Assembly (NCBI GenBank): GCA_963798485.1
Contig: CAWCTR010000005.1
Span: 1-64,000, forward strand
Source: an uncultured delta proteobacterium
Lineage (GTDB): Bacteria; Desulfobacterota; Desulfomonilia; UBA1062
DNA length: 64,000 nucleotides
Direction: 5' to 3'
In this document: one piece after another, positions 8,301-13,927 of the stretch
Numbering within the stretch: the first letter of the stretch is position 1
Layout: every line of letters begins with the position of its first letter
Notes under the pieces: model-generated
The model's database searches: none
What the model was told of the DNA's origin: nothing
Seen by the model: the letters and a program-made list of their open reading frames with translations, nothing else
Position numbers and translations under genes: made by a program

Positions 8301-8432
8301 GCCCAACGTGCGGATCAACGGCCGCAAACACAGCGGAGCACCAAGCCAGAATTTGCCAATGGCCGTGAAGCGGCGCAGAGACAGAGGCAACCCCCCACGC
8401 GGTTTGCGGTCCGCTGGATTTGCTGGTTGGCA
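8301..8432 (-). other. attC site (long)
   Basis: - strand TGCCAAC...GTTGGGC; CCGCAAAC/GTTTGCGG stem. Confidence 0.9.
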
Positions 8433-8920
8433 CTTTCGCCCCCCAACTTTTTTTGATTCTTGCCCCAACAGCCTTTATAAACGACCGCATGTTGAAGAAC
8501 GGACAAGATTGAAGCAATGGACCCGATTAACACGAAAGACTTCTCCCTGTATGATTCCTTGCCCACAGATTAAAAAATCTTTCTCTCCAAACTCGTCGTT
8601 GTGAGGGTGCCAACGCTGCGGATCACCGGACGCAAACACAGCGGAGCACCAAGCCTGAATTTGCCAATGGCCGTGAAGCGGAGCAGAGACAGAGGCAAGC
8701 CCCCACGCGGTTTGCGGTCCGCTGGATTTGCTGGTTGGCACTTTCGCCCCCCAACTTTTTTTGATTCTTGCCCCGACAGCCTTTATAAACGACCGCATGT
8801 TGAAGAACGGACAAGATTGAAGCAATGGACCCGATTAACACGAAAGACTTCTCCCTGTATGATTCCTTGCCCACAGATTAAAATTCTTTCTCTCCAAACT
8901 CGTCGTTGTGAGGGTGCCAA
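8307..8920 (-). repeat. Tandem pair of near-identical ~307-bp ORF-less cassettes (8307-8613, 8614-8920)
   Basis: Direct repeat with a handful of differences; each unit is ~175 nt body + attC. Confidence 0.95.
8608..8740 (-). other. attC site (long, copy of 8301-8432)
   Basis: - strand TGCCAAC...GTTGGCA. Confidence 0.9.
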
Positions 8921-8972
8921 CAATGCGGATCAGCCGCGGCCCTAGGCCGTCGGCTGAATTTGCTGGTTAGAC
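8915..8972 (-). other. attC site
   Basis: - strand GTCTAAC...GTTGGCA; TCAGCCG/CGGCTGA arms. Confidence 0.9.
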
Positions 8973-9940
8973 ATTTTCAGGAATCCTGCTTTTTCCAATT
9001 CGTTCTTTGTTGGCAGTCCCCAAAATATATAATGGCCATGTCCTGCACTAAAACGATGCCTATAGCTCAAATTAATGGATTTTTCTGTAATTGTGACCTT
9101 AGCGTACTTTTTGAATAATCTTTTGCTAATTGGCCGCGCAGACATTGTGATTGCTGCCATATCATCGACTTCGTCTTTAACCTTCCATGGGTAGTTGTCA
9201 GGGAAGGTGACAGTTGCATCAAAATGAGAGGAAAACGAGGGTGTTGAGCCAACCAACTCAACATTATTTTGACGAATTAGATGGTTTCTCAAAGTGTTTT
9301 TAAGGTCTGGCAAGGACTTATACAAATCAAGCTCTTCTTGGAACATCGCATGTTGTCCTACGATGTCAAAGTCTAATGTAAACAATACTCGGTCCCCGGC
9401 TTTCAATGAGCCGTTGGTTCGAAGAGTAAAGCTATATCCATCTGTGCCTAGAGGGCAAACCTCGACTTTCATTCGTGTGTCATTACCAACTACTTGTAAG
9501 GTGGTACGATAGTCCTCAATTGTTTCGCTTCCATAGGTAGTATGAGGTCTGTATGCATAGTATGAAAATGGACCAATGCTTGTAATCCCGTCACGAGTTA
9601 CCTTGAATACCATATCAACATGATGATGAGTAACAAAATTGCCTGCACGCCATATGTAAGGAGTGTATGTTGCTTTTGAATTGCTTCTATAGTAGCCCAT
9701 AATGTTGCTGTACATTCGTGTTGTGTTCGACATGTATCTAAAGATAATGAACAAGAAGCTTCCTATAATGATAAGACCGCCACTAAATGAATAAAGAGAG
9801 AGTTGTAAAGTTATCGTATAGTCAAAGGCATATATCCTCTTTATGATTGGGAGACTAAGACCTGCTAGACCAACTATTATTGATGCTAGCAAATTACCAA
9901 GGAGACCAGATTCTTTTATGAATGAAATAGCTCTGTTCAT
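8942..9940 (-). CDS. Hypothetical AT-rich protein with two N-terminal hydrophobic segments (first ordinary cassette)
   Basis: 332 aa ORF; stop codon lies inside its attC. Confidence 0.8.
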   Translation of the reverse strand: MNRAISFIKESGLLGNLLASIIVGLAGLSLPIIKRIYAFDYTITLQLSLYSFSGGLIIIGSFLFIIFRYMSNTTRMYSNIMGYYRSNSKATYTPYIWRAGNFVTHHHVDMVFKVTRDGITSIGPFSYYAYRPHTTYGSETIEDYRTTLQVVGNDTRMKVEVCPLGTDGYSFTLRTNGSLKAGDRVLFTLDFDIVGQHAMFQEELDLYKSLPDLKNTLRNHLIRQNNVELVGSTPSFSSHFDATVTFPDNYPWKVKDEVDDMAAITMSARPISKRLFKKYAKVTITEKSINLSYRHRFSAGHGHYIFWGLPTKNELEKAGFLKMSNQQIQPTA

Positions 9941-9960
9941 ATTCCATCCCTTTTGTTAAT

Positions 9961-10092
9961 GTCTAACGTATAGCGTTTTATCCATTGTCCCGCCGAAATT
10001 ATAGCAGGAGGAGATCAGGGGAGCAATGGTCATAATTTTAGGATGATATATGATTACTAAGCTGCGGGATGATGGATAAAAGGCCGTTGGAC
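9961..10092 (-). other. attC-like terminal hairpin of the inserted element
   Basis: - strand GTCCAAC GGCC TTTTATCCATCATCCCGC ... GCGGGACAATGGATAAAA CGCTATAC GTTAGAC. Confidence 0.75.
9998..10026 (-). promoter_or_regulatory. sigma70-type promoter pointing into the cassette array
   Basis: TTGCTC-N17-TATAAT with extended -10 TG. Confidence 0.7.
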
Positions 10093-10370
10093 TGTGCCGC
10101 TCCGGGCATACTTATTATCTATGGGCATTGTATCCGGATACTTCGCTAAAGAATAGTGGTTGATGATCTTGTTTGTGAAGGAGACGGCGTCTCTCGATAT
10201 GGTAATCGGTCGAAGATGTTGATCTTGAGACTGGATGTGAACCGTGAAAGTGAAGCATTTTGGTGGTATCTCAGACCTCAAGGCGTACCACTCCTGCACC
10301 CCAGTTGAACAAAGAACCTTGGGGCTGTCAGGAGCATGCAGTGTATGCGTATGTGTTTTTTGTTTGCTCA

Positions 10371-11621
10371 TCACGGAGAATTCAAGATCAATGGTTGATT
10401 GGGGCCAGCCTTAGTAACGCCCATTGCCTGGAAAGGAATTTCGGAGATCCGCTTCATGGTGCCTTTCCGGCAGGAAGGGCACTGGGTGATATCCATGCCG
10501 GTAAGCTGGAGCATCAATTCCTGAGTTGATTTATCAGCCGGACTCGAAGACTGAGAAGTGCAGTTGAGAAGCACTCTGATCCTGTTCAAGTCCTGTTTTT
10601 TCGACCTGTTGGCCAGAAAGCCGTAATGACGGATGCGCATGAAGCCATCGGGAAGGACATGGAGCAGGAACCGTCGAATGAATTCCACGGCATCAAGCGT
10701 CATGATCTTGCGGGTGTTCCGGTCCTTTCGGTCCTGGTAGTGGAACATGACCTTGTCGTCATGCATCGCAATGATGCGATGGTTGGAGATGGCCACCCGG
10801 TGGGTGTACCGGCCGAGGTAATCGAGCACCTGTTCAGGTCCGGCAAAGGGTTTCTTGGAGTAGACCACCCATTCTTGCTCTTTAAGTTTCCGGATCAGCT
10901 TCTTGAACCCGGATGGAACGCCGAGGTGAACGGAACTGCCGGGGAAGCTCAGTTCGCTGGAACGATAGGATCTCTCCAGATAATCGATGAACTTGCCTCT
11001 GAAGACGCGGGAGAGTGCCCTGACCGGAAAGAGGAAATGCCGGCGAGAAGCTATCCAGCGTTCTCTGTCGAAGGAGAGTGCACCGGCCGGGATTACGCAA
11101 TGCAGATGGTAATGATCCAGGAGCACTTGGCTCCAGGTATGGAGGATCAGGATGAAGCCCATCTTGCCGCCCAGAGAGTTCCGTGGATTATGGCCGAACT
11201 CAGCTAGGGTCTCGGATACCGACTTGAAGAGAATGGAGTAGATCTCCTTCTTGTTGCACTGGGCGATGGGGTTGATATCATGAGGCAGGGTGAACACCGT
11301 GTGGAAGTACCCTACCGGAATGAGCTCCTCAATCCGTGCTTCGAGCCACCTCGCCTTGGCCATAGTCTGGCACTTGGGGCAGTGCCTGTTGCGGCAAGAG
11401 TTGTAGAACGGTCGTTCATAACCGCACCTGTCGCAACGCTCGATATGTCCCCCCTGGAACTCGGTACGACAGCGGATGATGGCGGATATGACTCTTCTGT
11501 GGGCAAGGGGAGTCGGATAGGCCGCCTGGTAGTCACTGCCATGGACACGGAAGATATCTGCCACCTCGCAACTCTGTACAGGATGCTTCTGGGTACAGGC
11601 TTGCGTGATTGGGGCTAACAT
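10371..11621 (-). CDS. IS91-family (Y2/HUH) rolling-circle transposase
   Basis: Zn motif SCRNRHCPKCQ, HUH HYHLH, Y2 motif YLGRYTHRVAISN, EFIRRFLLHVLP.GF.RIRHYG. Confidence 0.95.
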   Translation of the reverse strand: MLAPITQACTQKHPVQSCEVADIFRVHGSDYQAAYPTPLAHRRVISAIIRCRTEFQGGHIERCDRCGYERPFYNSCRNRHCPKCQTMAKARWLEARIEELIPVGYFHTVFTLPHDINPIAQCNKKEIYSILFKSVSETLAEFGHNPRNSLGGKMGFILILHTWSQVLLDHYHLHCVIPAGALSFDRERWIASRRHFLFPVRALSRVFRGKFIDYLERSYRSSELSFPGSSVHLGVPSGFKKLIRKLKEQEWVVYSKKPFAGPEQVLDYLGRYTHRVAISNHRIIAMHDDKVMFHYQDRKDRNTRKIMTLDAVEFIRRFLLHVLPDGFMRIRHYGFLANRSKKQDLNRIRVLLNCTSQSSSPADKSTQELMLQLTGMDITQCPSCRKGTMKRISEIPFQAMGVTKAGPNQPLILNSP

Positions 11622-12475
11622 GACTGGCCTCCCTCTAGATGGCATGCCTCAATGTCCAGAGGGCTCCTGACGGAAGAGAGTCCGGTGCGCGTAAGATGCA
11701 GGTAACGCGCGGTGGTATTGATGTAGCTATGTCCCATCAGTTCCTGGATAGTACGAAGGTTGACACCGGACTCCAGTAGGTGCGTGGCGAAGCAATGCCG
11801 CAGGGTATGAATACCCCGGCCTCCGGTGATTCCTGCCTTTCTCCTGGCTTTGTCATAGATTCGCTGTGCAGTGGTAATGTGCATGGTGTTCTTGCGGTCA
11901 CGACCAGAAAACAGCCATACTGTGGGGCGGTACATCTTCATAAAGACCTGCATCTCATCCCAAAGTCGCTGGGAGAGGATCGTGTACCGATCCTTGTTGC
12001 CTTTTGCCTGCTCAATGCGGATGGTCATGCGCGATCCGTCGATATGCTTCGGCTTCAAGCGCACCACTTCGCTGACTCGCAAGCCTGCTGAGTAAGTCGT
12101 CATGAGCAGGAGGCGATGCTTGGGGTTGGCGGTACAGTCAAAGAGACGCTCTATGGCTTCCCTGCTCATAATCTCGGGCAACTGGGACTTGTTCTTACGG
12201 GGCGGTATGCTTAGGCGTATAGATTCATAGCCAAGAGTCTCCGAGTAGAAAAACCGGAAGGCGGACACCGCTAAGTTGCATGAGCTCCAGGCAAGCTTCC
12301 TTTCTTTCATCAGGTAAAGCAGATAATCCTGTACTTCCGTATTCGTGATCTTGTCGGGTGACCTCCCAAAATACTTCGCAAGCGCGGCAACAGCCATAAC
12401 ATAAGACTTCTGAGTCCGCTGTGAAAACCTCCTGAGCTGCATCTCACGAATCATCTTCTCCCGTAGTTCCGTCAT
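11615..12475 (-). CDS. Tyrosine recombinase (SAM-like N-terminus), lacks the IntI-specific insertion
   Basis: YSAGLRVSE, KGNKDR, HTLRHCFATHLLE, LMGHS, TTARY. Confidence 0.95.
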   Translation of the reverse strand: MTELREKMIREMQLRRFSQRTQKSYVMAVAALAKYFGRSPDKITNTEVQDYLLYLMKERKLAWSSCNLAVSAFRFFYSETLGYESIRLSIPPRKNKSQLPEIMSREAIERLFDCTANPKHRLLLMTTYSAGLRVSEVVRLKPKHIDGSRMTIRIEQAKGNKDRYTILSQRLWDEMQVFMKMYRPTVWLFSGRDRKNTMHITTAQRIYDKARRKAGITGGRGIHTLRHCFATHLLESGVNLRTIQELMGHSYINTTARYLHLTRTGLSSVRSPLDIEACHLEGGQSC

Positions 12476-12622
12476 GCCATACCTCCTTGTTTTTGTGGTT
12501 TAGTGAACAGGGAGATATGATACCGTAACTATAGATTATCGAAGGGTATTAATCGGGTGAGCTGTTGCTTAAGGACAATTTGATCAGCAAATTCAAGAGA
12601 CTCCGCGACAGCGGCTTAGTTC

Positions 12623-12650
12623 ACATACGACTTTCGTAAACAAAATATGT
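12623..12650 (-). other. Candidate attI (integrase-proximal part)
   Basis: - strand TTTTGTTTACGAAAGTCGTATGT directly upstream of intI; joins TAGAC in the reconstructed empty site. Confidence 0.6.
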
Positions 12651-12651
12651 A

Positions 12652-12679
12652 TTGACTTAGATGGATTATTTGTTATTTT
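12652..12679 (+). promoter_or_regulatory. Candidate intI promoter
   Basis: TTGACT-N16-TATTTT with extended TG. Confidence 0.4.
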
Positions 12680-12767
12680 CAAGTTTATCCCTCCTTACAT
12701 ACATTGATTCATAAAAGTTCATACTGAAAAACTATGTGATTGATTGGATGTACCTGTCAAGGAGGGA

Positions 12768-13739
12768 ATGATGCCTGAAAGGATTAAGCTGGCGGATCAG
12801 ATCAGGAATATACTGCGCTGCAAACATTACTCCATCAGAACCGAAAAGACTTATCTCTCCTGGATCAAACAGTCTGTTGTCTTTCATCACATGCGGCATC
12901 CCCGAATCATGGGAGTGGCAGAGATCGAAGCTTTTCTCACACACCTGGCCGTGCGCCGAAGGGTCAGCTCCTCCACCCAGAACCAGGCCTTCAATGCCAT
13001 CCTGTTTCTGTACCGCGATGTTCTTAATATGGAGCTCGATCAGACCATTGATGCCGTGCGGGCTAAAAGACCCCTGCGGGTCCCCGTTGTCATGTCCCGG
13101 GAAGAAGTGGCTAAGGTCCTGAGCTTTCTGAAAGGTACCGCCAGGCTCATGGTAAGCATGCTCTACGGCTGCGGGCTCAGGATCACGGAATGCTGTAAGC
13201 TCAGGGTCAAGGATGTCGATTTTGCTATGCATCAGATAACCATTTTCGATGGCAAGGGGAACAAAGACCGTGTAGTCATGCTCCCTGAAAAGCTCCTGAG
13301 CTTACTGCGTGAACAGATTGATCGGGTCAAAATCGTTCACCAGAATGATCTCAGGCAGGGGTACGGGTCAGTCTTCATGCCGTTTGCGCTTGAACGAAAA
13401 TATCCCGGGGCTTCACGGCAGTTGGGCTGGCAATATGTGTTTCCCGCGCTCTCAATATCAAAAGACCCGCGCAGCCAGGTAATGAGGCGCCACCATGTCA
13501 GTCCCTCATGCATCCAGAAGGCTGTCAGGAAAGCGGGTGAGACAGCGGGAATAATCAAACATTTCGGGTGCCATACGTTCAGGCATAGTTTTGCCACTCA
13601 TCTGCTTGAAGATGGTTATGACATCCGCACGGTTCAAGACCTGCTCGGACACAAGAGCCTGAACACCACCATGATCTACACCCATGTCATGCAGCGCGGC
13701 GCTGGTGCGGTGAAGAGCCCGCTCGACCGCATGGGCTGA
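12768..13739 (+). CDS. intI: Integron integrase
   Basis: [30 protein letters not shown], integron insertion [55 protein letters not shown]; GGAGG RBS. Confidence 0.97.
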
Positions 13740-13927
13740 AAACGCGCAAACTCCGTCCCATAAGGGTGGATACATGCGGATGTTCCGGGCCCTCCTCTTC
13801 ATACACTCATACGTGATGCCATTCCATTTCATGGTGCGTTCTTATACTGCATTTATAGCAGGGAGAGGGGAACGTTGTCAAAGGGTTGGATGGTTTGATT
13901 CACTCTCTTGACTTCGCTGCCCAATAG

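Follow-up and report, generated by a model that had tools for sequence, protein, structure and literature searches.

The DNA analysed here (the window) comprises 64,000 nucleotides, positions 1 to 64,000 of contig CAWCTR010000005.1 in assembly GCA_963798485.1 of an uncultured delta proteobacterium. Between attI and the first ordinary cassette of a chromosomal integron, it carries a 2.66-kb element with two genes, one for a tyrosine recombinase resembling the integron integrase IntI and one for a rolling-circle (HUH/Y2) transposase of the IS91 family. With a probability of roughly 0.6, this element is an autonomous member of a two-gene IS91 branch (ISAzo26 type) that was integrated site-specifically as the first "cassette" of the integron.

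Boundaries and copies of the element

The limits of the element and of its terminal sequences are as follows; a caret marks the point of strand exchange in the model discussed below.

9965..12623, minus strand: the element, with integron-like recombinase and rolling-circle transposase
12623 to 9967, minus strand: the element proper under the N^TT model
12609..12623, minus strand: 5' end (terIS side), T-GAACTAAGCCGC, an inverted copy of 10086-10100 with a motif conserved in the family
10086..10100, minus strand: internal inverted copy of the 5' end, GCGGCACA-GTCCAAC, in which GTCCAAC is an R''-like box
9965..9974, minus strand: 3' end, GCTATAC followed by the proposed crossover G^TT; which letter comes first after CTATAC depends on the lineage

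The element is discrete and has recently been active, as supported by its two identical copies. The second copy lies in the same genome (G000:C21:215637-218295, hereafter the C21 copy) and is 100% identical to window 9965-12623, and the junction alignments showed that the flanks of the two copies are unrelated. Likewise, the Logan unitigs of public sequencing runs break at 9963-9965 and at 12623 in 4/4 runs, and relatives at 90–97% identity in other samples have the same ends with different flanks, e.g., GTTGGGCAAAGCG... in run X3. The unit 9968-12624 delimited in a preliminary description of this DNA, which was made from its letters alone, is the same one, allowing for the G and T letters shared by both junctions. 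As the transposase was found in only 4 of 40 related genomes, at low identity, vertical conservation of the element was rejected; the second identical copy and the conservation across the family (see below) led us to reject chance as an explanation.

Read on the minus strand, the left junction in the window is ...GTCGTATGT|GAACTAAGCCGC (with a longer flank, ...AAAGTCGTATGT|GAACTAAGCCGC) and the right junction is ...GCTATAC|GTTAGAC (longer, ...AAAACGCTATAC|GTTAGAC). The junctions of the C21 copy are ...GTATAGTAATTGT|TGAACTAAGCCGC on the left and ...CTATAC|GTTGGGC on the right. The 5' end in the window is one T shorter than the TTGAAC of the family. The stretch GCGGCACAGTCCAAC (10086-10100) and the 5' end are imperfect inverted copies of each other, which is true of the whole family.

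Genes of the element

11615..12475, minus strand: tyrosine recombinase of 286 amino acids, IntI-like without the IntI insertion (PF00589 and PF13495; TIGR02249 below its cut-off)
10371..11645, minus strand: IS91-family HUH/Y2 transposase of 424 amino acids with an N-terminal zinc domain, overlapping the recombinase gene (PF04986, PF14319, NF033538)
10057..10374, minus strand: open reading frame (ORF) of 105 amino acids, probably not a gene

The recombinase ORF (12475..11615) matched the Pfam families Phage_integrase and Phage_int_SAM_4, and the catalytic motifs GLRVSE, KGNKDR, HTLRH, GHS and RYLH were found in it. Its best NCBIfam match was TIGR02249 with 185.9 bits, below the cut-off of 265, which places it outside the integron integrases. 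This match falls into two stretches and skips about model positions 181–228, the IntI-specific insertion; in the alignment with the IntI of the window (30% identity), gaps lie opposite IntI residues 177–240. The absence of the insertion had been proposed beforehand and is borne out by both comparisons. These features agree with a published classification that presents the recombinases of IS91 elements as the closest homologues of IntI, lacking its insertion (10.1101/542381). In a tree rooted on the host Xer, nine IntI sequences formed one clade (support 100) and 73 element recombinases formed its sister group (support 82).

The transposase contains the domains Y2_Tnp (PF04986, 209 bits) and Zn_Tnp_IS91 (PF14319, 106 bits) and reached 440 bits against the IS91 transposase equivalog NF033538 (cut-off 125). 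The HUH motif (HYHLH) and the two tyrosines (YLGRYTH) were seen in the translation; both the catalytic and the zinc features of IS91 are present. The ORFs and the family matches confirmed the overlapping gene pair already recognised in the preliminary description. The 105-amino-acid ORF had no Pfam or NCBIfam match and no tblastn match in 80 related loci.

The relatives of the element were examined in 160 loci, 80 from genomes of many phyla and 80 from metagenomes. At least 8000 transposase homologues were found at E <= 1e-30, many of them on contigs of 2.5–2.7 kb, which is the length of the element. In 77 of the 80 genome loci, the recombinase gene immediately precedes the transposase gene; of the three exceptions, two are on contigs that break off within 130 nt on the upstream side of the transposase gene.

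The same gene pair in the same order is found in ISAzo26, the annotation of which has the recombinase directly upstream of the transposase, and the transposase of ISAzo26 is 50.8% identical to that of the window. ISAzo26 also carries the 5' end (GGACTAAACCGC), the internal copy (GCGGTTCAGTCCAAC), a hairpin and N^TT-type flanks, as does the window element; however, it is inserted in a site of the type CATAA-N6-TTATG and not in an integron. ISShvi3 and ISWz1 are presumably further catalogued members of the recombinase-plus-IS91 group.

The 3' hairpin and its conservation

9975..10083, minus strand: hairpin with the 5' arm at about 10064-10083, the loop at 9994-10063 and the 3' arm at 9975-9993, based on folding and family covariation
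9998..10026, minus strand: outward-facing promoter-like motif within the loop, TTGCTC and TGCTATAAT (extended -10) 17 nt apart, based on conservation

The 3' end of the element is a hairpin of roughly 130 nt, running from GTCCAAC to GTT. The bottom strand of 9958-10096 folds with -21.9 kcal/mol (z = -4.08, none of 200 shuffles being as good) and the top strand with -16.3 kcal/mol (z = -2.85). GTCCAAC (10086-10092) pairs with the GTT+AGAC of the junction (9961-9967), and inward of this pairing follow an asymmetric unpaired stretch (4 vs 7/8 nt), a stem of 18–20 bp and a loop of 70 nt. The paired boxes are of the cassette type, since GTCCAAC fits R'' (RYYYAAC) and GTTAGAC, as integrated, fits R' (GTTRRRY); across the junction in the C21 copy and in tandem copies, R' reads GTTGAAC. 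As GCGGCACA, upstream of GTCCAAC, mirrors the 5' end of the element, joining both ends would lengthen the helix. This property had been predicted for a circular form, and it agrees with the inverted copies, with their covariation in the family and with natural tandem copies, in which the end-to-end junction is seen (CTATAC-ATT-GAACTAAACCGC in locus L014 and GCTAAAC-GTT-GAACTGAACCGC in locus L021).

The 5'-end motif G[AG]AC[TG]AA[AG]CCGC, its internal inverted copy and the covarying hairpin are conserved across the related loci. Both the 5' end and the internal copy were found in 95 copies, of which 81 have the hairpin by a seed criterion (74–78 distinct hairpins). The arms pair at 17.3 of 20 positions within a locus, compared with 6.4 when arms of different loci are combined; over the 12 distal nucleotides, with 65 distinct sequences, the values are 9.7 and 3.5. 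The preliminary description had staked its reading on a hairpin that is conserved together with the gene pair, and such a hairpin was found. Covariation was also seen between the 5' end and the internal copy, in the combinations GAAC/GTTC (35), GGAC/GTCC (10) and GCAC/GTGC (2). The combination GAAC/GTCC, which gives an A.C mismatch in the top strand and a G.T pair in the bottom strand, occurs 15 times and the opposite type never. Because of this asymmetry, and because the bottom strand is more stable than the top strand in 64 of 78 hairpins, the bottom strand is probably the one that folds.

The hairpin of the window has no single-base bulges, and neither do 70 of the 74 family hairpins, whereas the true attC sites here and in relatives have two to three single-base bulges on one arm of the bottom strand (5/5 folded). 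The hairpin is thus not a canonical attC, as it is without extrahelical bases. Of the features pointed out earlier, the GTCCAAC and GTTAGAC boxes and the asymmetric spacer were retained. The insertion of IntI is the part of the protein that reads the extrahelical bases of attC. A recombinase without the insertion and a hairpin without the extrahelical bases look like a matched pair, and since both are missing we infer that the element's own recombinase, more readily than IntI, acts on this site.

It is quite unlikely that the unit is a passive integron cassette, in which the hairpin would be an attC, the host IntI would move the unit and the two genes would be cargo or an insertion sequence embedded in a cassette. 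The position and orientation are indeed those of a cassette, G^TT is found at both ends in C21, L101 and L133, the R'' and R' boxes fit RYYYAAC and GTTRRRY, and the length lies within the attC range. In a Shewanella survey, ISShvi3 beside an attC is called "a new gene cassette structure" (PMC9229058). However, in other clades, where 8/10 genomes are without intI, the gene pair is still accompanied by the hairpin and by its pairing with the 5' end, as it is in ISAzo26 on a plasmid; the hairpin therefore belongs to the element. The missing extrahelical bases, the two identical copies and the first position in the array wherever the element is seen beside an intI also argue against passive carriage.

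In the loop, ATTGC-N17-TGCTATAATTT is invariant in 6/6 aligned ends and the remaining loop varies; the promoter-like motif was identified by this conservation and was not listed by a simple consensus promoter scan. It faces outward and could drive the next cassette or, in a circle, the recombinase gene. In a published account, terIS bears the promoter and oriIS is found across the transposase gene from it; oriIS can also carry outward promoters, e.g., in ISCR1 (10.1101/2025.11.21.689736).

Solo 3' ends without element genes were seen at two other places in the genome, in L003 at about 1440-1582 (G000:C14) and in L004 at about 1497-1640 (G000:C22). They are 83% and 77% identical over about 70 nt and retain the TGCTATAAT motif, CTATA(C/T) and GTT. 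Each lies just upstream of an unrelated ORF, and both loci share a conserved stretch beyond that ORF. The preliminary description had counted a 3' end (9968-10090) in integron alleles lacking the element as evidence against its reading; 3' ends outside the element do exist, but they no longer fold (z = +0.6 and +1.4), and they were rejected as attC sites and read as eroded remnants. Tandem repeats of only the last 22–23 nt of the 3' end were seen twice over in L023 (about 2620-2670) and five times over in L080 (downstream of the transposase gene).

The likeness to attC was judged from boxes and folds, since MAFFT did not align eight attC sites structurally. A structural attC finder written for this work was discarded, with no count taken from it, because it placed known sites in the wrong register and overlooked the C21 array. 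The requirement of a closed R-box fold fails for hybrid R' boxes, so that only L019 and L104 passed and the other sites were judged by eye and from folds. A crude regular expression for arrays behind a dispersed repeat missed the known C21 attC and was uninformative.

Insertion sites

12771..13739, plus strand: intI, a genuine integron integrase reading away from the cassette array (TIGR02249; identity to the intI of congener G007)
12624..12770, minus strand: attI region between the intI start and the element, shorter than in congeners (alignment with G007 and G008; L101 flank)
8913..9964, minus strand: first ordinary cassette, with ORF 9940..8942 and an attC at about 8913-8972

The intI of the window reached 460 bits against TIGR02249 (cut-off 265) over model positions 3–315 of 315 and is 94% identical to the intI of congener G007. 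The cassettes of this chromosomal integron run leftwards on the minus strand. The first ordinary cassette opens with GTTAGAC, and the R'' box of its attC, GTCTAAC, is the exact complement; four R''-side repeats (1648, 5887, 7484 and 8940) mark further attC sites. The attI of the element-free congeners G007 and G008 and of locus L101 reads ...GT(C/A/T/G)GTATAGTAAT(T/C)|GTT and that of the window ...AAAGTCGTATG|T, without about 7 nt (AGTAATT) present in the other three. The earlier statement that deletion of the element "exactly rebuilds attI" holds as arithmetic (GTCGTAT-GTTAGAC), but the product is not supported as the native attI, since the junction is one T short of the TTGAAC of the family and these 7 nt of the congeners are lacking. 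The window junction represents either an imprecise event or a small later deletion.

In the close clade, with transposases at least 67% identical, the left flank ends with ...TAG(T/C)AAT-N2-3-GTT in six of seven distinct insertions, the window being the exception. The same ending is the end of attI in G007, G008 and L101. The right flanks of this clade all differ (GTTAGAC, GTTGGGC, GTTAGAT, ATTGGGC, GTTGGCC and GTTATGG). In L101, an intI that is 72% identical starts 162 nt from the element in the same orientation, and in L133, with a transposase of only 49% identity, an intI of 51% identity starts 163 nt away. The tandem pair of L021 is located about 500 nt from an intI. In L026, at a distance of 2.2 kb from an intI, the element splits the R' box of an attC that forms its left flank and has two bulged bases; the right flank GTTAGAC complements the R'' of this attC. 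The orientation in L133, L021 and L026 is likewise the same. G^TT cores at attI or attC were thus found for C21, L101, L133, L021, L026 and L100-L106, which are flanked in the manner of cassettes, and the element is the first in the array wherever it was seen beside intI.

The reverse complement of the junction 7-mer, as expected of the R'' box of the next cassette, was found downstream in 9 of 15 GTT-type loci (about 2.2 expected, binomial P = 1.7e-4) and in 3 of 19 ATT-type loci, counting flanks of at least 300 nt and leaving out tandem junctions, one of the duplicates L105/L106 and shorter flanks. Five of the sites with a downstream complement fold as attC-type structures. IntI above the cut-off was present in 9/9 genomes of the GTT group compared with 2/10 genomes of other clades (Fisher P = 7e-4).

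Left flanks ending in TT make up 46 of 59 distinct ones; as the right triplet was set as NTT by the script, only the count on the left side is independent. Members of one lineage have the same letter after the 3' end (A in L102, L103 and the clade ending CTAAGC-A-TT, G in the window element), whereas the left triplet begins with a letter that depends on the target. Because the right letter is fixed by lineage and the left one depends on the target, the crossover is placed at N^TT. IntI cuts at G^TT.

The other clades of the family are a large one from soil and peat with the ending CTAAGC-A-TT, one from beta-proteobacteria with the ending CTCTGC-A-TT, to which ISAzo26 belongs, and a rhizobial one. 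Their flanks read ...CATAA-N6-TT|element|A-TTATG..., and 8 of the 10 genomes examined are without intI. The CATAA-N6-TTATG layout matches that of dif, and several of these dif-like sites seem to be repeated palindromes. The family is therefore not integron-specific, with one clade in integrons and others in dif-like sites. Accordingly, the earlier proposal of a self-mobile cassette stands as far as the discrete unit, its two identical copies, the attI position and the cassette orientation are concerned, but integron cores are the targets of only a part of the family (L101, L133, L021, L026, C21 and L100-L106).

The insertions of the other clades (L012-L179, e.g., L087, L170, L118, L150 and L190, which is ISAzo26) often adjoin the palindrome TTATGNNN-N4-NNNCATAA, and direct repeats of the left arm were seen upstream of these dif-like sites. 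In L084, an element copy is closely preceded, on the same strand, by a fragment resembling the C-terminus of IntI (2620-2742, 63% over 41 amino acids).

The ends of the element are unlike each other, with a hairpin at the 3' end, as in IS91, and the TT or GTT at both junctions can be read as a shared crossover or as a repeat of 2–3 nt. An ordinary IS91-type transposon has to be considered, in which the HUH enzyme alone nicks at the oriIS hairpin and inserts beside a short GTT target; integron cores would then be hit through the GTT beside their hairpins, and the recombinase would be accessory, e.g., in resolving tandem multimers. We regard this as unlikely, although the transposase is a full IS91-family enzyme and the junctions cannot separate the two chemistries. 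The tandem copies L014 and L021 and the partial 3' ends of L023 (x2) and L080 (x5) also resemble rolling-circle read-through or re-initiation. IS91 inserts beside GTTC/CTTG at oriIS; however, the 3' flanks here are GTTA, GTTG, GTTT or ATTA and rarely GTTC. The targets are extended recombinase-type cores (attI by intI, the R' box of attC and CATAA-N6-TTATG) and not a bare tetranucleotide. Moreover, the letter after the 3' end moves with the element and TT is shared, which fits a crossover inside the triplet, the recombinase gene is retained in 77/80 loci, and the distribution of IntI differs between the clades (9/9 vs 2/10 genomes).

Proposed mode of movement

Under the reading of an autonomous element that integrates site-specifically, the recombination site would have three parts: the R''-like GTCCAAC with its flank, the long hairpin and a spacer of 7–8 nt ending in G^TT. 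Only joining of the 3' end (GCTATACG) to the 5' end (TTGAACTAAGCCGC), in a circle or between tandem copies, would complete it. The HUH/Y2 enzyme would start rolling-circle displacement at the hairpin (oriIS) end and release the bottom strand as a circle. This strand would fold, like the bottom strand of an attC or the attP of CTX phages, and the element's own IntI-like recombinase would catalyse a single-strand exchange at N^TT between the folded strand and a double-stranded core site; the host IntI may help on the attI side. The junction would then be resolved by replication. The core site would be attI or attC (GTTRRRY) in the clade of the window element and a dif-like site in the others.

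Several points weigh against this reading. The left junction in the window, GTATGT|GAAC, is atypical, being one T short with a shortened attI. The left flank of the C21 copy has no adjoining intI, and its attI label comes from a resemblance of its last 25 nt or so to the attI of congeners. A HUH enzyme cutting at N^TT or inserting 5' of GTT would leave the same junctions, and inverted repeats can covary as protein-binding sites in duplex DNA without folding. By the seed criterion, 14 of 95 copies are without the hairpin; the seed also forces pairing at 9 of the first 10 arm positions, and of the two pairing measures only the distal one (9.7 vs 3.5) is close to independent. The 9/9 of the IntI comparison refers to genomes that were chosen by junction type and contig size, one of which (L026) was known beforehand to be intI-positive, and genomes of relatives do not count as independent. 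For the recombinase tree, which was made with FastTree, a long-branch warning was given. Finally, no circle junction and no empty site were among the joints listed, which came from assembled contigs only, in which rare forms are invisible, so that absence is not implied.

Comparison with known systems

Compared with integron cassettes, the element shares the G^TT of attI, the cassette orientation, the R'' and R' boxes, an imperfect palindrome and a bottom strand that folds better. However, it has no extrahelical bases, an asymmetric spacer of 4 vs 7/8 nt, its own recombinase together with a replication-type nuclease, and two genes in 2.66 kb.

With IS91 and ISCR elements it has in common the HUH/Y2 transposase with a zinc domain and unlike ends with secondary structure; it differs in the extra recombinase gene, in the extended core targets and in the TT shared at both junctions. 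An outward promoter-like motif at the oriIS-side end is also described for ISCR1 (10.1101/2025.11.21.689736).

The proposed working mode is similar to that of CTX-type phages, which integrate at dif through Xer: a folded single strand would serve as the core site, one strand would be exchanged with a duplex and replication would resolve the product. Unlike these phages, the element has its own recombinase, and the single strand, if made, would be produced by the HUH transposase and would not be a phage genome; the element itself lies outside that group.

IS1111-attC elements and group IIC-attC introns target attC sites as well (PMC9229058), but they use different enzymes, insert inside attC and carry no attC-like site of their own.

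Other repeats and integrases in the genome

Within the array, a 308-nt unit is directly repeated at 98% identity (window 8309-8883) and resembles a duplicated small cassette. Two more integron integrases, G000:C19:228-1175 and G000:C12:6524-7471, are near-identical and have the same upstream region. One of them lies at a contig edge; a single integron may have been assembled twice here, or the two may stem from the 7% contamination. All three intI genes share a stretch of about 80 nt over the stop codon (window 13713-13794, C19:1156-1236 and C12:6463-6543), which also occurs at 78–83% identity about 140 nt upstream of the C21 element copy, in its left flank; it could be what is left of a lost intI, or else a shared terminator.

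The left flank of the C21 copy is a dispersed repeat of about 100 nt (G000:C21:218296-218420; L002/L180) with 10 blastn matches in the genome and many in congeners. Other copies are located at C17:187979, C17:215132, C7:126732, C24:40120, C24:60687, C13:34972, C21:192338, C16:1479 and C30:132306. The repeat holds two direct GATATACTGCAA units and the palindrome TACTGCAAAAGTGCAGTA, and it may be a shared promoter or operator.

Significance

To our knowledge, there is no accepted answer to how recombinase-plus-IS91 elements move, or to where cassettes and attC sites come from. Both the gene pair (ISAzo26 type) and the resemblance of its recombinase to IntI have been published before. The literature passages available to us contain no description of the cassette-like site spanning the junction, of N^TT insertion at attI, attC and dif-like cores, of the link with IntI genomes or of the missing extrahelical bases. 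They also give no mechanism for the gene pair (passages including PMC9229058, PMC11322121, 10.1101/542381, PMC7923331, PMC11023631 and 10.1101/2025.11.21.689736), although supplementary figures, e.g., Figure S2 of PMC9229058, may hold more. The sole printed hint in them is a single sentence about ISShvi3, found in an integron of Shewanella (PMC9229058). The branch is thus catalogued but mechanistically unexplained, and the mode of movement proposed here is a well-framed hypothesis and not a demonstrated pathway. As it involves two genes and a single hairpin, it is testable.

The data suggest a very large family with a conserved, foldable recombination site across the joined ends of the element, inserting where IntI cuts. 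Integron surveys may count such elements as cassettes, and the outward promoter-like motif could alter the expression of the array behind the element. As a far-reaching idea that we consider improbable, the two-gene IS91 elements might be free-living relatives, possibly ancestors, of the integron system: the HUH enzyme would make bottom-strand circles, the insertion-less recombinase would integrate their folded hairpin at N^TT of attI, attC or dif-like cores, and IntI with attC would be the domesticated version. If this were true, rolling-circle read-through past the 5' end would attach the hairpin to neighbouring genes and so give new cassettes an attC.

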